Sequence record: ON470608.1
DNA from: Escherichia phage vB_EcoS-733R5
Length of the DNA stretch: 46,651 bases
Strand: one strand, 5' to 3'
Shown here piece after piece: positions 1 to 42,768 of the stretch. Position 1 is the stretch's first letter; the number at the start of each line of letters is the position of its first letter. A program made the position numbers and the translations under genes. A model generated the notes under the pieces. That model searched no databases. It had not been told where the DNA came from and worked only from the letters and a program-made list of their open reading frames with translations.

Positions 1-933
1 ATGGACAACGACAAAATTGATCAACACAGCGACGAAATTGAAGTTGAGAGCGAAGAAAAAGAGCGCGGCAAAAAAATAGAAATAGATGAAGACCGACTCC
101 CCTCCCGGGCGATGGCAATTCATGAGCATATCCGCCAGGATGGTGAAAAAGAGCTGGAACGCGACGCAATGGCGCTACTGTGGTCAGCCATTGCGGCGGG
201 TCTGTCGATGGGCGCTTCGTTACTGGCAAAAGGGATATTTCAAGTCGAACTGGAAGGTGTGCCGGGCAGCTTCTTGCTGGAGAATCTCGGTTATACCTTT
301 GGTTTTATTATCGTCATTATGGCCCGCCAGCAATTATTTACCGAAAATACCGTGACTGCGGTACTACCCGTCATGCAAAAACCGACAATGAGCAACGTCG
401 GCTTACTTATGCGATTATGGGGCGTCGTGCTGCTGGGTAATATTCTCGGGACAGGTATTGCTGCATGGGCATTTGAATATATGCCTATCTTCAATGAAGA
501 AACTCGCGATGCATTTGTCAAAATCGGCATGGATGTGATGAAGAACACCCCCAGCGAGATGTTTGCCAACGCGATCATTTCCGGCTGGCTGATCGCCACT
601 ATGGTTTGGATGTTTCCTGCTGCGGGTGCGGCAAAGATTGTGGTGATTATATTGATGACCTGGCTTATTGCACTGGGTGACACCACCCACATCGTTGTCG
701 GTTCTGTTGAAATCCTCTATCTGGTGTTTAACGGCACGCTGCACTGGAGCGATTTCATCTGGCCCTTCGCACTACCTACTTTAGCCGGGAACATCTGCGG
801 CGGCACCTTTATCTTCGCGTTAATGAGTCATGCACAGATTCGTAACGACATGAGCAACAAGCGTAAAGCAGAAGCACGCCAAAAAGCAGAACGTGCGGAA
901 AACATTAAGAAAAATGATAAAAACCCAGCATAA
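1..933 (+). CDS. yfdC: Formate/nitrite transporter (FNT) family inner-membrane protein YfdC
   Basis: 310-aa ORF with multiple hydrophobic helices; recognised from memory as the E. coli YfdC protein that neighbours argW. ATG falls at window position 1. Confidence 0.75.
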   Translation: MDNDKIDQHSDEIEVESEEKERGKKIEIDEDRLPSRAMAIHEHIRQDGEKELERDAMALLWSAIAAGLSMGASLLAKGIFQVELEGVPGSFLLENLGYTFGFIIVIMARQQLFTENTVTAVLPVMQKPTMSNVGLLMRLWGVVLLGNILGTGIAAWAFEYMPIFNEETRDAFVKIGMDVMKNTPSEMFANAIISGWLIATMVWMFPAAGAAKIVVIILMTWLIALGDTTHIVVGSVEILYLVFNGTLHWSDFIWPFALPTLAGNICGGTFIFALMSHAQIRNDMSNKRKAEARQKAERAENIKKNDKNPA

Positions 934-2341: not shown

Positions 2342-2668
2342 TTATATAACCGGGCATCCATCATCAGTAGGCCATGCGCGATTGATGTCGAATGTCACCA
2401 CCCCGACAACTGTAACATCATCCAAAGCCTCTCCTTCCAGAGTCTCACCGTCTCTTGTAATAAATGCCCGGCCCATAATTTTTGCAAAATCTGTGCCTCC
2501 GCCGTATTGAATTAAAACGGTATCTCCTTGCTTTGGTTTACCGGAGACATCGACTACGGTGTAACCAGTTTCTGTTTGCACGATCCGAGTATTAGGGCCG
2601 GTACCGCAGAGTTTATCGACGGTAAGCCGTCCTTCCACAAAGTCTGCTGCTGGCGATGGAAAGCCCAC
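2342..2668 (-). CDS. UmuD'-like / peptidase S24-like domain protein, apparently lacking the canonical Ser-Lys dyad
   Basis: N-terminus GFPSPAADFVEGRLTVDKL closely matches the UmuD segment GFPSPAADYVEQRIDLNQL that follows the autocleavage site; the C-terminal VVGVV resembles the S24 beta-core; the SGxSM catalytic motif is not evident. GTG start 2 nt after the upstream stop. Confidence 0.5.
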   Translation of the reverse strand: MGFPSPAADFVEGRLTVDKLCGTGPNTRIVQTETGYTVVDVSGKPKQGDTVLIQYGGGTDFAKIMGRAFITRDGETLEGEALDDVTVVGVVTFDINRAWPTDDGCPVI

Positions 2669-2910: not shown

Positions 2911-3048
2911 ACTTCCCCCTGTCAAACTTACTGTATATAAACACAGTAAATGCATGTGTGCAGCAGATCAATATTGGCAGTGGCTATCAATGATCGGCGC
3001 TGACGTAACGCATTGATGCCTCAATTCGACTGGCAACATTGAGCAGGG

Positions 3049-3095
3049 AAATATTTATAAATCGTCTTCACCCCCCTCATATTACATCGGCTACC
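3049..3095. repeat. Copy A of an approximately 45-bp repeat encoding a serine-recombinase C-terminus
   Basis: The minus strand encodes ...GVKTIYKYFP...; direct repeat of the sequences at 3258..3304 and 3838..3882. Confidence 0.6.
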
Positions 3096-3257
3096 GACCC
3101 AATGTTTTAACTGCTCAGACCAGAAATATCTGGAAGCTTTAGGCATCTTCTTGGAAGATAGATGAGCGCAAAGACGCACACAGCAATGATGTTATGTAGT
3201 ATTTTCCCCTTGAGTGTGCCTGCTCAAGGGGATTTTTTATCGCCGTATTGTACTGGC

Positions 3258-3304
3258 AAATATTTGTAAATCGTCTTCACTCCCACGCCTGTCACATAGG
3301 CCAC
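3258..3304. repeat. Copy B of the recombinase 3'-end repeat
   Basis: aaatatttgtaaatcgtcttcactcccacgcctgtcacataggccac; the minus strand encodes ...VTGVGVKTIYKYLPV... Confidence 0.6.
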
Positions 3305-3322
3305 ACGCTACTGGACAGGCGC

Positions 3323-3745
3323 TTAGTCCGGTATGTTTCTCGCGCTACTACTGCTTACGTTAACGTCTGGTAATGCTCTAGCGGCGCGACGTAAAGCGGC
3401 GTTGAAAGCAATTATAGTGACCGGCCGGCGATGGTACTTCACACGGTTAGAATGACTCTGAAATAAATAAACATCTTCTGGATAGCGTTCTCTTCTACGA
3501 GCAATCATCGCCTCCACTGGAGGGGTTGATTTAACACGTAGCTCCTTCAGGTGACCCTGTTTTCGTATCAGTATCAAGTCACCATCAATATCATCATATC
3601 GAATACTCAGCAGCCTTCCAGCGCTTAAACCCGTGTGAAAAATTAACGCCCACAAGTCAGCCCATGTATCTGAGATGGAAACAAGATTGCTGTTAATAGT
3701 TAAAAATTGCTCAAAACTTATTGTTTTCTTACCGTTCACGAACAA
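3323..3745 (-). pseudogene. Tyrosine-recombinase-like fragment, apparently truncated before box II
   Basis: 140-aa ORF containing HTGLSAGRLLSIRYDDID (box-I-like); it terminates before any HxxR...Y region and runs directly into repeat copy B. Confidence 0.4.
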
Positions 3746-3822: not shown

Positions 3823-4054
3823 TCAAGTCGCCGGGAGGTACTTGTAGATTGTTTTCACGTCCACGCCTGTCACATCGGCTACCTGCTGCCGGGTTGCGCC
3901 CGTACCCAACATCCTGCGGCATCGCTCCACAACCTCAGTGGTCATTACCCGGCGCCGTCCACCTACTCTCCCCTGCTCCCTCGCTGCGGCTAAACCGGCG
4001 CGGGTACGCTCGACAATCAGCTCTCGTTCCATCTCTGCCATTATCCACAGTCGG
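3823..4054 (-). pseudogene. Serine recombinase (Hin/Gin/Pin-type DNA invertase) C-terminal fragment
   Basis: AEMERELIVERTRAGLAAAREQGRVGGRRR...QQVADVTGVDVKTIYKYL matches the invertase catalytic-domain end plus HTH; the N-terminal ~120 aa are absent; the 3' end is repeat copy C (3838..3882). Confidence 0.7.
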
Positions 4055-4229
4055 TTTTCGCTGTGATCCAGCGCGCTATCGACGAAATACGATTTTTTCC
4101 CGTGCGATCCAGGAATTCGCCTCCACCTCGGATAAGTGGATGCCGCACCGGCGCAGCGCTGACACAAAATCCTTTGTGTGCAGGTATTGAAAACCTTTGG
4201 AGTTGCGCAATACCGACTCGCGGAATGCC

Positions 4230-6183
4230 TGATTGATATCTGACTGACAGTGCATGATCTGCCCTCTGATAAACGTCGCGGTAGGGATACCCGTTACCGG
4301 GTACCCCCCGCACAGATCCCGGCGTGCGCTATTCACGCACCGGGCTCCTGCCTTGGGTGTCTGGCGGTGAACCGCTCCACAGGCCATGGATGCAGAACCC
4401 GAACCTTCGGCAGCCATACGGCTGCCAGTCTGTTTGCTTTCGTCCATGTCGTATCATCCTGCTGGCTCCTGCGCCTCAGCGCCCGTCGCCAGAGGTCTGT
4501 TACGTATATCCTGAACTTCCGCATCATGGGATAGTTGCCCGGGACTGAGTGGTAGTTCAGGTATCCCTGAACCACTCTCCTGAGCCATTTTCCCTGTTCG
4601 GGGATTGAGTAATGCCAGCGCTTTCGTAGTCCGTCCTTGATCGCTTTCAGTGTCGCCGTCATCCTGTCCCGGCGTGTCTTTCGTATCAGCATGAACCTGC
4701 CACTACGATCTTTCCCACTGATATGCGTGAACCCGAGGAAGTTGAACGTTTCTGGTTTACCTTTTCCCCTGCTGGCGCGGTTTTCGGCTGCGAAGCGGCC
4801 GAACTCCGTCAGTCGGGTTTTCTTCGGATGTACCGTGAGTCCGAACTCCTTCAGTCTGCGCTGCATGGCTATACGAAAGCATTGAGCGTCGATTCGCTTG
4901 TCGAACCCGATGACTATGTCATCTGCGTATCTGACCATGACCACATTGCCTGTGGCATGGCGGCGTCGCCACTGATGCGCCCACAGATCGAAGACATAGT
5001 GGAGGTAGATGTTTGCCAGCAGCGGCGAGATAACCGCACCCTGTGGGGTGCCTTCCTCCGATGCCCGCCATTCTCCTTCCTCTGAGGTCCCGGCTGTGAG
5101 CCACTTTCGTATGAGCCTGATTACCCTCTGGTCGCCGATTCTGTGTTCTATGAACCTGATTAGCCATTCATGGCTTACCTTGTCGAAGAACTGACTGATA
5201 TCGGCATCCAGTACCCAGTTTACATTGGTCCGAACCAGCCCTGTGGCCAGTGCGTCCAGCGCATTGTGCTGGTTTCGCCCGGGTCTGAACCCGTATGAAA
5301 ACCCCATAAAGTCATTTTCGTAGACTGCATTCAGGATCTTAACCAGCGCATACTGGACGATTTTGTCCTCCAGTGAGGCGATGCCGAGCGGGCGCTGTTT
5401 TCCATCCGCTTTCGGGATGTAGTGCCGCCTGCCGGGCTGAGCCCTGTAACTACCCTGATGAAGCCTCCGGTGCAGATCTGCTATGTTGACCTTCAGGTTT
5501 TCGGCGTAGTCCTTCCACCTGACACCATCAACTCCGGCAGCCGCTTTCCTGCTCAGGGAGAGGAATGCGTTCTCCAGTGCCTCTGCTGTCAGGAGGTGGA
5601 ACAATGCGGTAAACCGTTCTTTCTTCCGCTGCTTCGCAGCTTCCCGCACGCGTGACAGCCTCTGTGACATACTTTCCCGGCTCTGCGTCCGGCGCATGTG
5701 TGGCTGTTCCGCGTTTCCCTTGGCCCCGCTCCTTCGCTCCACTGACTCCGCTCCTTGCGGATTGTTCGCCAGATTCGCAGCTACTATGAGCGAGTCCGAC
5801 TTCTCCTCTCCGTACATCACCGGCTTCGGCTCCTCGCCTTCCCGGTGCGGGCCATCTCCGGCACTGGCAGATGGTCAGAGGGGAGATCTCCCGGTTCCCG
5901 CGTAAAGATCGTATTGACATGCCAGGGTCTCAGACCCCGCCGGGTCCATATGGCACTCGCAGTAACGCACCCTATGATGTTGCCTTCCGTAAACAGTACA
6001 ACGTCGGCACCCGGGAATTTAATATACATTTCGTGGCTCAATGGCTGGCCTGTCAACACCCCTGTCAACGCTTCGCCCCATACCTCACGGTATACAACGC
6101 ATGACTCGGGGACCCTGTGGATTGCTGGTCCTTCAATGGTCGGGGACTTTCACCCCTTGATCTTTACCGGTCTCCCGGCGCAC
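4230..6183 (-). mobile_element. Group II intron (3' boundary approximate)
   Basis: The minus strand begins GTGCGCCGGGAGACCGG (5' consensus GUGCG) at 6183, contains the RT/maturase ORF, and has a domain-V-like hairpin with a GTAA tetraloop at about 4278..4311. Confidence 0.7.
4333..5820 (-). CDS. Group II intron-encoded reverse transcriptase/maturase (LtrA-like)
   Basis: 495 aa with RT motifs (FxGxxxGxxxSPLLANIYL, YADD active site) followed by a maturase X-like domain. Confidence 0.85.
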   Translation of the reverse strand: MMYGEEKSDSLIVAANLANNPQGAESVERRSGAKGNAEQPHMRRTQSRESMSQRLSRVREAAKQRKKERFTALFHLLTAEALENAFLSLSRKAAAGVDGVRWKDYAENLKVNIADLHRRLHQGSYRAQPGRRHYIPKADGKQRPLGIASLEDKIVQYALVKILNAVYENDFMGFSYGFRPGRNQHNALDALATGLVRTNVNWVLDADISQFFDKVSHEWLIRFIEHRIGDQRVIRLIRKWLTAGTSEEGEWRASEEGTPQGAVISPLLANIYLHYVFDLWAHQWRRRHATGNVVMVRYADDIVIGFDKRIDAQCFRIAMQRRLKEFGLTVHPKKTRLTEFGRFAAENRASRGKGKPETFNFLGFTHISGKDRSGRFMLIRKTRRDRMTATLKAIKDGLRKRWHYSIPEQGKWLRRVVQGYLNYHSVPGNYPMMRKFRIYVTDLWRRALRRRSQQDDTTWTKANRLAAVWLPKVRVLHPWPVERFTARHPRQEPGA

Positions 6184-6252
6184 ACTGTTTTTATATACAG
6201 TAGTTATCGTCGCGAGATCATTCAAGCATTTTTGCCTTCCATGGCGTCAGTG

Positions 6253-9200
6253 CTACTGGTTGTTATCCAGCCAGTATTGCATCCATGCGTCAGCCATAAT
6301 ATTGCAGGCAAAGGTATATTCTGAGAATGTCGTTGAAATTTCTGAGAAGAAATCCAGATCCCACAGCTTAATCTGCCCATTGGTATTTGACCCACCGTAC
6401 TCATCAAAAGCATCCAGCAGGCGCTCAGCTGCTTCGAGGCAGGAGTTATCACCAGAATGCAGAAGAGGGTACAGCAGGAATCCAACCGTTGTCGGCTGCC
6501 CGCGGCGCGACTCCGCGATGCAGTAGTCCACTTCCTTCAGCCCACCGTAACCCGATACAGCATTTAACGCATAGGTTTCCATGTTTAGGACCGATGCCCG
6601 TCCCGCTGCTTTGCATCCGATCAGGTAGTTGTTCCAGGCATACACCTGATAATGCAGATAGCGACGCTTCGGAACATTCTCAGTGACGTTATCGGTAATA
6701 ATGTTTTTCACCCCGGCAAAATACGTACTGGATGAAAACTGACCGTCAACCATCGTCATCGCCGTAGCGTAGCTCCCGGAGGTATCCAGACCAGCAGCAT
6801 ACGCCATCGCCCAGGAACGGAACGCAGCAGCATAGAAGTTGCTGTTTGCCGAACCGACCGTACCGAATGCTGAATAGCAGTCTGCTGCCAGATTGCCGAT
6901 GGCCACTTTCAGTTCGGTTTGTTTTGCCGTGTCACCATTCAGCACCGCGAGCTTATAGAGCCACCACAGCGGAGGGAGTACCAGGCGGGAGGCAAACTGC
7001 AGCGACTTGGAATCAGCTGCGTTTCCGAGGTGAATGTTGCCGATACTTCCGTACCACGTTGTCGCCCACGCGGAGAACTTCGCATACACCGTCTCAAACG
7101 AGCCGATTTTCAGATGCAGCATGCGCACAATATCGCCGGCAATGGTGTTGAACATCCCGTTGCCGTTGTCGGTACTTGTCGCATCCAGCGTATTCCAGGC
7201 CGCAATACCGCTAATGACATCCCCCAGACGGCTGGCCAGTTTAGCCTGGCGGACGCGTGGGTACACAGATGACAGTGAAGCGAACCCAACAACAGGATTA
7301 AGTTCGACGTTAGACAATGCCGTAGTATCAGAAATGCTCTCGTTAAGGTTCATAGTGAATGAGACAGGCCACGCCCAACCCGCAGGAGCACCAAGGGTCG
7401 TTGTGGTCGATCCATATGTTCCTGCCGTCCACCCACCATCGAAACGTACATAGGATGTGGTTACTGTCAGCCCGGCGACTGGCGGCCTGTTACCAACAGT
7501 AGACGCTTCAGCAGAATCACGAATAGTATCGCCGCCTGCGTTACGGATAGACACAGAACGCAATACTGAATTGTCAGTCCAGATCGCGTTGTACTCGTTA
7601 CGATATGCTTTGGTCGCCGTTGAGTTAAGCTGAATGCGCGTCATACATGCAAACAGGGCATTAGCTGCCAGCGCAGATTGCAGGCGAGCCACAGCATCAA
7701 TCTGTACATACCCGTTTTTGAATACCCGAGTACGGTAGGTATGTTTAATCAACCGCGCCGCAATGGCCACGTTACCGGTAAGAGCGCCATTGTAGAAGAT
7801 AGTTTCTATTTCGGTGAATACCGGACCATCACTGATAATTTTGTACGCGTAGTCCGTATAACCCGCCGCGACCGTCGACCAGGCGGTGCCGGTTACCGTC
7901 GCATACAACTGCTGACAGATATTGGTATAGGTGATGCTGTCCCGCGTCAGTTTGTACGGCAGCCAGCCTACCACGCTGTCAAAACGCACCTGAGTCCCGT
8001 CATCGGCGGTTACCAGCAGACTGGTTGCGGTTTCCCGGTTCGTTCTGGTGTAGGAGGACGCATCCTGCGGTGTCGGGTAGGCCTTCAGCAGGTATTTTTT
8101 GGACGAGTTAGCCGGGATATTATCGAGGATAAGCAAATCCCCGCTGCGCAGGGAGCCATCAGCCCAGTAACTCAGGTTACGCCCCCGGCGCGGGTTAAAG
8201 TCTCCCTCTCCCGCCCACTGGGAGGGATATACCGTTCCGTCCGCATCCGTCACCACAATACAGCGGTCAGTCGGTACCTCACCCGCCTGGAATTTGCATT
8301 TTATCGCTACAGGGCGGCTTCCTGTTGCGTAATCAGTTGTGTTTTTAACCACAACCTCATAGCGGCGATACGTCGTTAAATCGTCAGTTGTCATTTTGGG
8401 CCCGTTGAACGTACCGGTTAATGTTACGTTTCCGTCAGTCGTCAGGGTGACGGCACCGGCGGCGAGTTTAAAAAGGTTGCAGAAGGTTTTTGTTGCGGAT
8501 ACAGATGTGACCTGACTGAACACGTAGCCTGCCAGCTTATCCACCACATACTGAATAATCCCCGCAGTGGTCAGCGCATAGCCTGCTGCCGTGACGTCCG
8601 CATTCAGGACAGCCAGAATCAGCATGCCCGTTGAGGCGTTGTAGGTGATGCCCCGTGTGGTTCCCCCGGCAATCGTGGTGGGAGTGAAGGCGTCAAACAC
8701 TCCTGCGCGGTCACGAATGATGCGGGTGGTGTCAGATGGCAGAGCACCGGGCAGCGTGACCGGGATGTTCATCGTCGTGCGACCGGTGGTCGTGTTGATA
8801 CCCAGGCCGTTGATACCCGCTGGCTGCAGCACAAAATCGACATACGGCGTTGTCAGGACGGCGCCGGCGGTAGATTCGCCTTCCAGCAGAGCTATGCTCT
8901 GTGAAGTACCAAGTCCGTCGGTCATCGTCATGACCAGGCGGCGCACGTTCGTGGAAAGGGACAGCTTATTCAGCGTGAAAATACTGCCGCCGCTCATCGT
9001 GGCACTGTAAGCCACCTGTGACCCATAGTTACCTACGGAGCCGATATTGGTCTGGTAGTCCCGGAGTTCGAGATTCAGCGCCCGCAACCTGTCAGCGGCA
9101 TACGCCTGAGCATTTGCAGCAATATTCACGGCATTGGCGTTTGACTGCATTTTCCCAACATCAAGAGACAGTTTTTTTGTCACCTGAATAGTCGCCGTAC

Positions 9201-10290
9201 AGTTCTGGTCGGTGACCGCTGTCACCGCCCCCGCCTCTGAGAAAAACAGGGTGTATTCAGGCAGCGTCTGAGAAGCGGTGGATTTCTGGCTGAGGATAAT
9301 CCCGCCGTAAGTATCCCAGAAATACTTCTGCGCCCCTTCCGTTGTGTCGGCATACCCAGCTGCAATCATCACCGTACGTGATACAGCGACATATAGCAGA
9401 TCGTTAGCGGCATCAAAAGCAAGCGTATCTACAGTGTAGGTATATGCAGACGATGCTATGCCGATAGGGATTCTGTTTTTACGGTCGCGCAGCACGCGCG
9501 CCTCTGTAGCAGAAAAAGCCCGTGGGAGTTTAATTGACCCTTTCAACACCCAGGTGTTAAACGTACTGGCGGAAACACTATCAACAATGAACTGGCGCAT
9601 TGCCACGTCATAATACAGGGTTGTCAAAACACCATCGGTCAGCGTTTCCCCGTCAAAAAACCCCTGACTGAACAGCGTCCTTCCCGCTCCCGTTAGCGTC
9701 AGCGTACATGCGGCTGTAGCAAAAGATGTGGAGAAAGAGGAAATGGACAGCAACACGCGATCCGCATAAGTCGCCGATCCGTTCAGTGCCGATGATCCGC
9801 CGGAAGAAAACGCATCCAGATACTGGGTAAAGTCTGCAGCCAGCGTACGCCGGTCTGGCATACTCATTCCGTGTAACTGGTTATCACGGACAGAGGAAGC
9901 GGTTGCTACCTGACCAGCTGCAATCAGTGCCTGGTTAACTGAATTCTGCGACGGCATTTTCCGCCCGGTAGGCTGCAGCGTCCCGGCGTTGTTAATGACC
10001 TCGATAGCCAGCGCAGAATCATCAGGGCTACGGTAATACGTGGTCGAGCCTACCGGAATATTCGCGATGTCCGCCTGTGCCGCCGCCAGCGTCGCATACT
10101 GTTTACTGAGCGGGATCAGGTTCTGCCTGACCTCATCGTTTTTCGCCATCATCTGGCGCCACGAATAGAGTGGATCGCCACCACGGTCGGGAACATCAGC
10201 GGCTGGCCCATTGACCAGCTTATCCAGGCGCTCGGCATTATCGAGCAGCACAGCGGGAGACGTGCTCCCCAGCTCCGGGTTAAAGGCCAT
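6253..10290 (-). CDS. Phage tail fibre / tailspike protein (1,345 aa from the SD-supported ATG)
   Basis: Very large Ser/Thr/Gly/Ala-rich ORF last in the tail operon; ggag lies 9 nt upstream of the ATG at 10290; the C-terminal ~300 aa form a distinct domain. Confidence 0.7.
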   Translation of the reverse strand: MAFNPELGSTSPAVLLDNAERLDKLVNGPAADVPDRGGDPLYSWRQMMAKNDEVRQNLIPLSKQYATLAAAQADIANIPVGSTTYYRSPDDSALAIEVINNAGTLQPTGRKMPSQNSVNQALIAAGQVATASSVRDNQLHGMSMPDRRTLAADFTQYLDAFSSGGSSALNGSATYADRVLLSISSFSTSFATAACTLTLTGAGRTLFSQGFFDGETLTDGVLTTLYYDVAMRQFIVDSVSASTFNTWVLKGSIKLPRAFSATEARVLRDRKNRIPIGIASSAYTYTVDTLAFDAANDLLYVAVSRTVMIAAGYADTTEGAQKYFWDTYGGIILSQKSTASQTLPEYTLFFSEAGAVTAVTDQNCTATIQVTKKLSLDVGKMQSNANAVNIAANAQAYAADRLRALNLELRDYQTNIGSVGNYGSQVAYSATMSGGSIFTLNKLSLSTNVRRLVMTMTDGLGTSQSIALLEGESTAGAVLTTPYVDFVLQPAGINGLGINTTTGRTTMNIPVTLPGALPSDTTRIIRDRAGVFDAFTPTTIAGGTTRGITYNASTGMLILAVLNADVTAAGYALTTAGIIQYVVDKLAGYVFSQVTSVSATKTFCNLFKLAAGAVTLTTDGNVTLTGTFNGPKMTTDDLTTYRRYEVVVKNTTDYATGSRPVAIKCKFQAGEVPTDRCIVVTDADGTVYPSQWAGEGDFNPRRGRNLSYWADGSLRSGDLLILDNIPANSSKKYLLKAYPTPQDASSYTRTNRETATSLLVTADDGTQVRFDSVVGWLPYKLTRDSITYTNICQQLYATVTGTAWSTVAAGYTDYAYKIISDGPVFTEIETIFYNGALTGNVAIAARLIKHTYRTRVFKNGYVQIDAVARLQSALAANALFACMTRIQLNSTATKAYRNEYNAIWTDNSVLRSVSIRNAGGDTIRDSAEASTVGNRPPVAGLTVTTSYVRFDGGWTAGTYGSTTTTLGAPAGWAWPVSFTMNLNESISDTTALSNVELNPVVGFASLSSVYPRVRQAKLASRLGDVISGIAAWNTLDATSTDNGNGMFNTIAGDIVRMLHLKIGSFETVYAKFSAWATTWYGSIGNIHLGNAADSKSLQFASRLVLPPLWWLYKLAVLNGDTAKQTELKVAIGNLAADCYSAFGTVGSANSNFYAAAFRSWAMAYAAGLDTSGSYATAMTMVDGQFSSSTYFAGVKNIITDNVTENVPKRRYLHYQVYAWNNYLIGCKAAGRASVLNMETYALNAVSGYGGLKEVDYCIAESRRGQPTTVGFLLYPLLHSGDNSCLEAAERLLDAFDEYGGSNTNGQIKLWDLDFFSEISTTFSEYTFACNIMADAWMQYWLDNNQ

Positions 10291-10365
10291 GTTTTTTGCT
10301 CCAAAACGGTGTTCGCCCAAACGAGGGTTTGAGCGAAAGAAAAGTTGAAAGGGATTTTTTTGGTA

Positions 10366-13300
10366 TTAAGCGACGTCGCCGGGGTATGTGGCGTCGTCGT
10401 ACTGGTAGAACGATTCGAGGTATTCTTTAGCGGTGACCTGACAGGTTCCGTCAGACTGCGGGGCGATCTCCTCTACAATGGCGTCGTAGACATGGCGCGT
10501 TGAGCCGCAGAACACCAGGCGGATCGGCTCAATGGTTGCCGACGACAGGTCAACCTTCATCGGATCATCAAACTCACTCAGGTGCGGGACTGACAGCTGA
10601 AAATCACCCACCCTGCTTGCCACCATCAGCCCGGATGCAGAGCCATCCTGATAGCGGATCAGCGCTCGAGGGTTTTCGAAAGACCAGTCCAGCGGCTCCG
10701 TAACGGTGAACGTTGTCACGCCACCAGCCGTTGTCATCGCCTCCACCAGACAGGAAATCGTGTTGTTACCCGGAATATCATCCGTGAGCACAATGCGATC
10801 GCCCGTGTTGTAGCACAGCGCGTCCAGCTCTGTAGTGGCCTGGAACGTCACCCGCTGCAGCAGGTATTTCATCAGGCGACGCATGCCGATCTGATAGGCG
10901 TGGTCCTGATTGAGTACCCCATCGAGTTTATAATTCTCGATCTTCACTGGCGTCGGATTGTCCGGCGTCCGGCATTTAACGGTCTCCTCTGCCCAGGTAG
11001 TCCCGTTGATGTACGTCACGTCGACGCCATCAAAATCATCGTCGGACGGTACGGTAAATCCGCTCTGCAGCTCCTCCACCATCTCATGCGGAGTGATCAT
11101 GCCAGTCCAGGGCTTAATCCCCTCACGGTTGACCGTCGCCAGGCCATCACTCAGCAGAAAACGTGACTTCCCGGCATTGGCTATCTTCTGCAGCATTTCC
11201 AGCGCTGAGATACTGTCGCCCGTGGCGAAATCGAAATTTTCGCCCCGTGGCGTCCAGTACGCGGATTCCAGCGCGTTGATGGTGTCGACGTCCATCTCCA
11301 GCCCCAGCGAGTTCCCGACATGCAGCAGCGCCCCCGAAATGGTTCTGGCGGTTCCTGAGTCATAGGCGCGCGTGGCCACAACGTTTACGCGGCGGTCCGA
11401 CTGCGCCGCCAATTTGCCCCCCGTCTCAACGGTCACCGCCATCAGCGACACGCCGGGATAGGATGAAGGGCGCGTCAGCAGTCGCCCGCGCAGTGCCTGC
11501 CAGTACATCGTATCTCTGGCATTATCCTGCCCCTGTTCATTTTTCCGGCGACACCGGACCTCAACGAGGCCTGGTGAAGGCAGAGTGATACGCTCAGTAA
11601 ATCCAAGTCCGTTAATATTTTTTAACTTGTAAAATCCGTCGCGCGTTTCCCATCCTCCCCCTGAGCCGTAAATACGGTATTGAATTACCCAGCCAACCCA
11701 CCACGCTTCTTTCTTGCCCTTCTTGTTGAATCCACAGATACCACTCGGGAAAGAGAAATTTACTTCGAAAGCGTCAATCTTTTCGTTCTCAGGGCAGGCA
11801 AGAAATGGTCCCATCCAGGTATCATTATCGTTTATCCCGGTAGCCTCATAGTCGATCATCGTCCTGGCTATGAATCCCGGCCATGACTCATCAATAACAC
11901 CGTTAACCAGACGCGCCACCGTTGCCGTCGCGCCGTCGGCAGAGGCGATCTGGTATTCATTGCCTCGGTGGGCAAGTGAAAGCCGCTGCACCCCCTCCGG
12001 CATCCCGGAGAATGCGGTGCCCGTGGCGCTGTTATAGGCGAGTGTCACATTCGCCGTTACCGCCGGGCTGCCGCCAGTTGATGCCGTGCCGGAGGTGTAA
12101 ACCGGGGCATCACCGAAAACAGCTGCAGGCAGCGAAGAGGACGTGATCGCCCCACCCGCGAACGGACTGGCCGCCTCTGTTATCAGTACAGTGCCGCCGT
12201 TGTCCTGCGCAACCAGGCCGGATCCGGTGAGTTCCTCGGTGATGGCCGCCAGCAGTCCCGACATCGAGACGTAGTTAGCCACCAGCGACACCGGGTAGGT
12301 AACCCCCTGCCAGGTGATCGTGAACGCGCTGGAGCTGGTCGAAAAATCGTAGGTGGTCGGGGCCGCACTGGCCTGGACTTTTGCCGCACTCCCCCCCGTG
12401 CCGGGCACTGCAACCTGACCGGGGGTATATGACGCGATAAACAGATCGTAATCGACAGAGTTAAACCCCAGCGTCACCGGCATACCTACTACCGGCGCGA
12501 TCTCCGTCAGCAGCGGGCTTGCGATAACGCTGTATCCAGCCGCCGTGGTGATCTGGTAGTTCGCCGGGGCTTTAAGTTCGACCACGGCGCCAGCGACCCA
12601 GCTGGGCGGCAGTGCGTTATCGTTCTCGTCATTATCGTCATCATCATCCGTATCCAGCCCCGTAAACGTCACGCTCGATCCGGAGACGGTCATGCTGTCT
12701 GCGATAATGTCGTCTGCGTCCGGCGACGTCTGGGCCATATCCAGCCCGGTGCCGGATGACGTCCCGCCAACTTCGGTGGAGTTGACCCAGTTTTCGCTGC
12801 GCTCATCACCGGAAACGTCCGCGCCTGGCGGGTAATGGGTGCTGCTAAATCCAGGTAGCGTTGAAGCTGGCGTACTGCCAACCCTGATATCGCCATTGGT
12901 ATAAATCAAATCACCGACACCGAGACACAGCAGCATCTGGACGCGCATTTTCGTAGGATCGGCGGCATCAAACCGGGTAACCGGCTGCACCACATAATCA
13001 GGGTAGATACGCACCCGGCCAAATACCTCACGAATGGCATCACCGAGTTTTGCGCTGTTTGCTTTAGCGGGGTTCAGGTCGAGGCTTCGACCTGTGGATG
13101 ATGTATAGCCGCCGGCATCAATGTTACTCATCATGAACAATGAATAAGCCGCAGATGCGACGGCAATGCCCACTCCTATCCAGGCAATTGTCGCGGCCTC
13201 AAGCCCGAAAGGCACCGGATAAAGCCTGACATCACTATCAGGGCGAATCACACACTTAGCCCACTCGACTGGCGGAATTAACAGCCCCTCAACCTCAACG

Positions 13301-42242: not shown

Positions 42243-42317
42243 TAAGTTCTATGTCCCCTTAGTTAAATGGATATAACGAGCCCCTCCTAAGGGCTAATTG
42301 CAGGTTCGATTCCTGCA
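42243..42317 (+). tRNA. argW: tRNA-Arg (anticodon CCU)
   Basis: 75-nt cloverleaf-compatible sequence with a GTCCCCT/AGGGGAC acceptor stem, CCU in the anticodon loop, a GTTCGATTC T-loop and a 3' CCA. Confidence 0.9.
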
Positions 42318-42768
42318 GGGGACACCAGATACCCTTCAAACGAAATCTACCTTCACCCCGTAAAAGATGGGTTTGGCAGCACACTTGCCTTATATCTACT
42401 CATTTTTACTGCAACAGGTTGAAATCTCAGCACTGTCAGAAAGCGCTGATGACTAAACAGCCCTGGGCCGGGCGATGTAACCATCACACAGAATCCTGAT
42501 AGCGAAATATGGCGTGACTCGATACTTCACTCCGCAATGCATTCCTTGATGAATTCGCAGGACCGTGATACACGGGACAGGTCACTGAATGACGACAATG
42601 TCCTGGAAATCAGCGAACCGCGCATCTGAAGTACATTTGAGCGACTGTACCAGAACATGAATGAGGCGTTTGGATTAGGCGATTATTAGCAGGGCTAAGC
42701 ATTTTACTATTATTATTTTCCGGTTGAGGGATATAGAGCTATCGACAACAACCGGAAAAAGTTTACGT

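Follow-up and report, generated by a model that had tools for sequence, protein, structure and literature searches.

Three kinds of target specificity are recognized for bacterial group II introns, namely homing sites, terminators and attC sites (2015 review, PMC4424553). RmInt1 from Sinorhizobium meliloti, an intron coding for a reverse transcriptase (RT)/maturase without an endonuclease domain, has a homing site of about 20 bp located in one insertion sequence, ISRm2011-2. Introns of the RmInt1 type carry out reverse splicing at replication forks, into DNA that is transiently single-stranded, with the protein reading distal positions of the 5' exon (PMC8914252), and introns lacking the endonuclease depend on the forks for priming (PMC4424553; PMC8914252). 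Class C (IIC) introns use terminators or integron attC sites as generic, recurring inverted-repeat targets at many unrelated loci; they have only the exon-binding sites EBS1 and EBS3, and they read a DNA stem-loop upstream of the intron-binding site IBS1. Copies of Kl.pn.I5 (Kl.pn.I5 and Se.ma.I1 are Zimmerly database names, as in PMC3522654 and PMC6764390) have been described as intergenic, with flanks conserved from -25 to +10 (Leclercq and Cordaux, PMC3522654). Here, we analyze the Kl.pn.I5/Se.ma.I1-like intron of Escherichia phage vB_EcoS-733R5 (ON470608.1), whose 46,651 nucleotides are all referred to as the window, and present evidence that the homing site of this intron is the LexA operator.

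The 5' exon of the intron in the window ends with ...AACTACTGTATATAAAAACAGT exactly at the junction, and this sequence is a LexA operator. The whole box, TACTGTATATAAAAACAGT, has the same sequence as the umuDC operator of E. coli. In plasmid copies the intron lies 42 bp upstream of umuD, after TTTACTGGTTATATATACAGT. We collected loci from one genome per species, from IMG/VR viral contigs and from metagenomes. In the genome and viral sets, the motif CTG-N10-CAG-(T/C) ended at the junction in 76 of 78 distinct 40-nt 5' flanks, and a box was present in 39 of the 41 upstream-context clusters. When the metagenome loci were added, 65 of 71 distinct 25-nt flanks were perfect, four had one mismatch in the left arm, and in the other two the left arm was replaced by an ISKox3-like end. 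A preliminary description of the window, made from its sequence alone, had not noticed this operator, common to nearly all copies. At a fixed position, CTG-N10-CAG is expected by chance with a frequency of about 2.4e-4. The logo from -19 to +1, TACTGTATATA(A/T)A(A/T)ACAGT^A (the caret marks the insertion point), equals the 20-bp LexA consensus; A and T make up 84% of the spacer, and the majority of sites differ from that consensus at one to three positions (71-site set). Insertion takes place between positions 19 and 20 of the consensus TACTG(TA)5CAGT^A, and the 16-bp core of the box in the window stays intact 5' of the intron.

The genes located next to the occupied boxes encode proteins of the Pfam families GyrI-like (SbmC-like), DinI, colicin/cloacin and Peptidase_S24/UmuD, as well as a phage UmuD'-like protein (phrog_3469) and a 79-aa protein (phrog_3893). 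The GyrI-like/SbmC-like, DinI, colicin/cloacin and UmuD families are textbook members of the LexA regulon in E. coli. At about 25 of 40 characterized sites the intron reads in the sense direction and separates the box from the ribosome-binding site; at about 12 it runs antisense to a divergent SOS gene, and the box lies between this gene and the 5' end of the intron. Two loci, L104 (IMG/VR 2880021599_000003, 6088-11865) and L142, contain head-to-tail intron arrays with an exact spacing of 1,909 nt; the array in L104 has at least four copies, and the copy adjoining the box differs from the rest by six single-nucleotide polymorphisms. The arrays suggest repeated insertion at one and the same box-intron junction, in agreement with the tolerance of G at +1 that the window shows.

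It is thus reasonable to think, with a probability of about 0.85, that the window contains an intact intron of the Kl.pn.I5/Se.ma.I1 family without an endonuclease domain, that it arrived by retrohoming, and that its homing site is the LexA operator itself. Such an intron resembles RmInt1 in its protein and in having a site of about 20 bp, but its target would be an operator common to many unrelated genes instead of one insertion sequence. With class C introns it shares a generic, recurring inverted-repeat target found at many unrelated loci. It differs from them in having IBS1 inside the palindrome, a tentative EBS2 loop, and a ribozyme that matches the Rfam D1D4-6 model.

By its sequence features, the element is an intact, complete and mobile bacterial group II intron of 1,909 nt. 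A megablast search of 6183..4275 against complete E. coli genomes gave matches at 274 places in 219 genomes, with exact ends (1-1909) in different replicons. The 5' end, GUGCG at 6183..6179 of the minus strand (GUGCGCC), agrees with the GUGYG rule, and the 3' end, ...GAC at 4277..4275, with the AY rule. An intron-less allele was found in the same prophage of E. coli 184/2aE, beside yfdC, where the joined exons were identical over 339 of 339 nt (100%), and the 1,909-nt insertion is thus clean, with no duplicated target sequence. The Rfam model group-II-D1D4-6 (RF02005; gathering score 49) was matched over its whole length. Domains V and VI were detected by RF00029 at the expected place (4349..4275; 36.9 bits, E=6e-5), in a stretch that folds into two hairpins (-48.3 kcal/mol, z=-4.9) and is conserved in relatives; in domain VI the branch-point A bulges out at 4282, 7 nt from the 3' splice site. 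The 495-aa intron open reading frame (ORF) matched Pfam RVT_1 (E=3.9e-45) and NCBIfam TIGR04416, the model for group II intron RT/maturases (372.9 bits; cut-off 300), and the closest solved structures to its product are group II RTs. No HNH/endonuclease family in Pfam or NCBIfam matched this protein, whose C-terminus reaches 44 aa beyond the end of the TIGR04416 match, and from its domain content it is of the endonuclease-lacking (En-minus) type.

Much of the preliminary description holds at this level. The start with GTGCGCC at 6183 on the minus strand is correct, and so is the 495-aa RT/maturase with its YADD motif (4929..4918). Two of the checks it had proposed, against covariance models and against an empty site in a related prophage, bear it out: RF02005 and RF00029 match the element, the intron-less allele given above proves its boundaries, the 3' end has domains V and VI, and the frame of the intron-encoded protein (IEP) is uninterrupted. 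A domain-V-like hairpin with a GNRA loop had also been reported; the domains exist, but it is domain VI that has the GNRA loop (GUAA), and the loop of domain V is GAAUA. The 3' boundary had been placed at about 4230 or even 4050, and the empty allele moves it to 4275, 45 to 225 nt away. As a consequence, the range 4230-6253 proposed for the element contains the intron (6183..4275) but includes exon on both sides.

The window is a 100% match to a prophage of E. coli strain 164, and, read on the opposite strand, is almost the same as GenBank ON470622 (Escherichia phage vB_EcoS-716R3). Compared to the consensus of its subgroup, the intron in the window has two nucleotide differences, both of them non-synonymous (S183N and M338T), the latter also present in ON470622. 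One identical intron sequence of the subgroup occupies three different LexA boxes in Klebsiella michiganensis, and therefore the subgroup is, or recently was, mobile. The long ORF has been kept in 55 of 59 full-length copies.

How the operator might be read can be partly deduced from the ribozyme. The partner of EBS1 is formed by the last 6 nt of the 5' exon, which are the right arm of the LexA box. EBS1 and IBS1 covary across six lineages, with loop and 5' exon being UACUGUG and CACAGUA in L023, GUUUCC and GGAGAC in L026, UGUCAC and GUGACA in L038, CUGUUG and CAACAG in L031, and UUACUCA and UGAGUAG in L030. The internal loop at 6031..6015 probably holds EBS2, judging from the equivalent loop in the relative L026, which forms 7 bp with its target (AGAUGUC/GACAUCU). 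In the window, the TA-repeat target leaves the register ambiguous. The left arm, TACTG at -19 to -15, lies outside the identified RNA pairings and is as strongly conserved as IBS1 (1.4-2.0 bits). It is probably read by the intron protein, as the proteins of other group II introns recognize distal positions of the 5' exon (PMC3522654).

Operator use extends to a more distant lineage. A lineage with 69% IEP identity, from assemblies labelled betaproteobacterium, Pelomonas and Gemmatimonadales bin and from environmental metagenome contigs, was located in LexA boxes at five of eight distinct sites. In this lineage the intron joins the exon one base later (CAGTA^), with a matching 1-nt shift of EBS1. 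Its metagenome members were collected by a protein-seeded scan; an exact-pattern scan of the metagenome contigs for the 5' end of this lineage gave zero matches. Lineages at about 63% identity have other target sequences. The chromosomal umuDC operator of E. coli, ACTACTGTATATAAAAACAGT^ATAAC (100% in K-12), is identical to the site in the window and was therefore predicted as a target. Indeed, a chimeric junction query found the approximately 92% identical variant exactly at this operator in at least 12 E. coli chromosomes, in the order hlyE, box, intron and ATAACTTCAGG...ATG of umuD. In the L254 record, the operator around the occupied chromosomal umuDC site is not annotated as a feature.

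A link between the intron and the SOS response can be proposed from the position of the box. A candidate SOS promoter that overlaps it was recognized by eye, and a similar architecture, TTGATC-17-TACTGT, precedes chromosomal umuD and the cassette of Klebsiella phage RCIP0114. No terminator was predicted between the tail-fibre gene and the intron in a scan of 4000-6400, and read-through from the late operon is therefore a second expression route. The intron could thus be transcribed from the LexA-controlled promoter, by late-operon read-through, or by both, the box promoter starting transcription a few bases before the intron. Its ribonucleoprotein (RNP) would be made during SOS or prophage induction, upon LexA cleavage, and LexA would vacate other boxes and replication would be perturbed just when the RNP is made. 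The intron RNA would then reverse-splice into LexA operator DNA, with EBS1 pairing to the right arm, the tentative EBS2 to the TA-rich centre and the protein presumably reading the left arm, and reverse transcription would complete retrohoming. We infer in this way that expression and mobility are coupled to SOS. That this intron lineage in gamma-proteobacteria, and with it the 69%-identical relative from assemblies labelled betaproteobacterium, uses the LexA operator as its homing site, as a fourth target specificity coupled to the SOS response, is put forward tentatively, as a proposal whose chances we rate slightly below even.

Other explanations for the association with LexA boxes have to be considered. 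The intron might need only its RNA-pairing motif, an AT-rich stretch followed by ACAGT; LexA boxes would then be occupied simply because they carry this motif most often, without recognition of the operator as such. The span of EBS1 and the tentative EBS2, just -13 to -1, would agree with this, and so would the tandem re-insertions at box-intron junctions, which leave little weight to the 3' exon. The information content of the unpaired left arm argues against it. In addition, a matrix scan for -13 to -1 over 1.45 Mb of loci found seven right-arm-only sites, none of them occupied, and CTG is present in 41 of 43 occupied contexts; this sample is small, and biased because the loci were chosen for containing the intron. 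We regard recognition of the pairing motif only as rather improbable. Recognition of a DNA hairpin in the style of class C introns is considered unlikely, since one of the two arms of the palindrome is IBS1 itself. It could also be argued that all sites descend from one ancestral insertion spread together with its host cassette by recombination, without repeated homing, since many prophage sites have the same phrog_3893 cassette. This is very hard to reconcile with 41 upstream contexts, at least six unrelated families of flanking genes and both orientations, with identical introns at different sites of one genome, with the existence of empty alleles, and with the separate insertions at chromosomal umuDC; we give it next to no weight.

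Several points weigh against an intact, operator-homing intron under SOS control. The RF00029 score is slightly below its gathering score of 40, and the bias just mentioned affects the occupancy comparison. A consensus promoter scan of 4000-6400 called no promoter at the box, and therefore the promoter proposal rests on reading of the sequence and on likeness to the region upstream of umuDC. SOS control of the intron is presumed, and the antisense insertions, which misfit a simple model of riding the SOS transcript, are a main weakness of the SOS-expression part. The change S183N, in the FRPGRS motif of the RT, is private to the window and strain 164 (L001) among the copies compared. The strain 164 chromosome has one intron copy although at least one matching box, at 2931-2946 in the prophage and 1.3 kb away, is empty, and its chromosomal umuDC box is probably empty too. 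Finally, the gene after the intron is a frameshifted pseudogene, so that splicing has no evident benefit here. The private substitution, the single copy and the decayed downstream gene might indicate that this copy is a stranded relic, no longer able to move or splice. However, the ORF is uninterrupted, all ribozyme motifs are present, only two nucleotides separate the copy from a demonstrably mobile subgroup, residue 183 is variable in relatives (S/G/K/R/N), and a recent arrival follows from the empty allele found in a sister strain. A relic is a realistic, if unlikely, alternative to a functional intron. The annotation in ON470622 of the IEP as a retron-type RT finds some echo in weak NCBIfam matches to retron and DRT models, all of them far below cut-offs. 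It is ruled out for practical purposes by the TIGR04416 match above cut-off, the Rfam D1-D4 and DV/DVI matches flanking the ORF, the precise empty site and the EBS/IBS pairing.

The element itself is already catalogued and is not new; RefSeq annotates the intron ORF as ltrA. The intron or its approximately 92% identical variant is present in 4,287 of 72,556 PLSDB plasmids (about 6%), 3,778 of them from Klebsiella. This variant resides on 11.97-kb ColE1-type Klebsiella plasmids, and a plasmid of that type carries the Se.ma.I1/Kl.pn.I5 label in PMC6764390. The window intron belongs to the same family, being about 92% identical over the full 1,909 nt to the copy on ColE1-type plasmids, and can be considered a variant diverged by about 8% when measured against those copies. 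A 2025 survey of phage introns (PMC12350094) classed the group II introns in ON470608 and in MK448228, a Klebsiella prophage holding a homologue of the window's target cassette, merely as intergenic, and nowhere mentions LexA or SOS. None of the searchable Kl.pn.I5/Se.ma.I1 papers ties the homing site to LexA or SOS. A search of the literature on group II intron homing and LexA/SOS boxes found no link between them, with most subscription journals outside its reach and an earlier description possible. The element was known, and the operator-homing rule was found in no searchable paper.

The element is an ordinary, annotated one, and it is the rule of where it lands that deserves attention. Homing to LexA operators would add to the three target strategies in PMC4424553, and would explain the presence of the intron in so many PLSDB plasmids and in many prophages. 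If the rule is true, every SOS promoter on plasmids, phages and chromosomes is a potential target, and insertions would change how SOS genes are wired, umuDC on resistance plasmids among them. Sense insertions split the operator from its gene, and antisense insertions may split upstream promoter elements from the operator and gene. On replicons of clinical importance, this concerns the SOS control of umuDC (mutagenic polymerase), dinI, sbmC and bacteriocin genes. It also links retroelement mobility to DNA damage, antibiotic-induced SOS included, in a way that is open to direct test.

The occupied box is part of a decayed cassette under SOS regulation, placed directly after a tail-fibre-like gene, which in turn comes after a TipJ-family gene (Table 1). 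The tail-fibre stop ends at 6253, leaving 69 nt of 5' exon, in line with the roughly 70 bp of the preliminary description. In the related Klebsiella phage RCIP0114, the cassette after the tail-fibre gene consists of a phrog_3893 gene, an intact homologue of the truncated gene in the window, and a UmuD'-like gene. The intact pair behind the second LexA box of the window is a paralogue of the decayed, intron-bearing cassette, and the homologue of this second box is occupied by the intron in two other prophages (L170 and L091). The truncated DNA invertase noted earlier is a C-terminal serine-recombinase fragment. It had been taken to mean that the intron invaded a tail-fibre inversion region; such a region does not determine the position of the intron, as the same invertase debris is found in the intron-less allele and other copies have no invertase nearby.

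Table 1. Features of the intron, its insertion site and the surrounding prophage region (positions in the window)
Feature	Position	Strand	Basis or remarks
Complete group II intron, Kl.pn.I5/Se.ma.I1-like	4275..6183	-	Full-length megablast matches and intron-less allele
Occupied homing site, LexA operator TACTGTATATAAAAACAGT^	6184..6202	-	Core CTG-N10-CAG at 6200..6185
Candidate SOS promoter	6197..6225	-	By eye: TTGAAT (6225..6220), 17 nt, TACTGT (6202..6197); overlaps box
Ribozyme domains I-IV core, group-II-D1D4-6 (RF02005)	6150..5925	-	184.5 bits, E=3.8e-54, whole model 1-225
Tentative EBS2, UAUAU	6022..6026	-	In internal loop 6031..6015; against TA-rich box centre, -13..-9
EBS1, ACUGUU, terminal loop	5997..5992	-	Loop position from Rfam alignment; 6 bp with AACAGU
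Intron-encoded RT/maturase, 495 aa, in domain IV	5820..4333	-	RVT_1 and TIGR04416
Domain V	4347..4314	-	AGC triad at 5' end; GAAUA pentaloop
Domain VI	4313..4275	-	GUAA (GNRA) loop; 3' end ...GAC
Tail-fibre-like gene, 1,355 aa, upstream of intron	6253..10320	-	N-terminal tail-fibre PHROGs; phrog_20877 over rest
3' exon: ribosome-binding site and frameshifted, truncated 79-aa phrog_3893-type gene	4076..4274	-	PGAP: frameshifted, incomplete
Serine invertase C-terminal fragment, fused to pseudogene	3823..4050	-	Resolvase 119-144/145 and HTH_7
Second LexA box, unoccupied	2931..2946	not assigned	Precedes intact two-gene cassette
Intact phrog_3893 gene, 79 aa	2910..2671	-	Behind second LexA box
UmuD'-like gene, phrog_3469	2668..2342	-	Behind second LexA box

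Some minor observations concern this prophage. In the RefSeq record of strain 164, the 1,355-aa tail-fibre ORF is not annotated as a gene, and just a 354-nt partial pseudogene is given. Three decaying direct copies of the serine-invertase 3' end (...VKTIYKYLP...) lie at 3038-3075, 3247-3314 and 3825-3892, and their sequences suggest repeated recombination or cassette turnover in the region. A 140-aa ORF at 3323-3745 on the minus strand (phrog_19751) weakly resembles tyrosine integrases in their C-terminal part and looks like another recombinase remnant in this moron region. The first ORF of the window is yfdC (1..933, plus strand) and a tRNA-Arg (CCU) gene is found near the other end (42253-42327, plus strand), so that the prophage appears to lie between these two host genes.

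Other observations concern LexA boxes and plasmids. In the intron-less strain E. coli 184/2aE (L083, about 6400-7800), the second LexA box is interrupted in its TA-rich centre by ISKox3, an element of the ISL3 family, and in the metagenome loci L198 and L233 the left arm of the occupied box is replaced by an ISKox3 end, GAAGACCC...; LexA boxes may thus be frequent targets of a second mobile element, unrelated to the intron. On pKpQIL-like plasmids of the FIB type (L002 and L003, 3958-4001), the intron lies antisense, 42 bp upstream of umuD, replacing the sequence upstream of the box, and the umuDC promoter of the plasmid may have lost its -35 element through this insertion. L002 also has umuC as a pseudogene.

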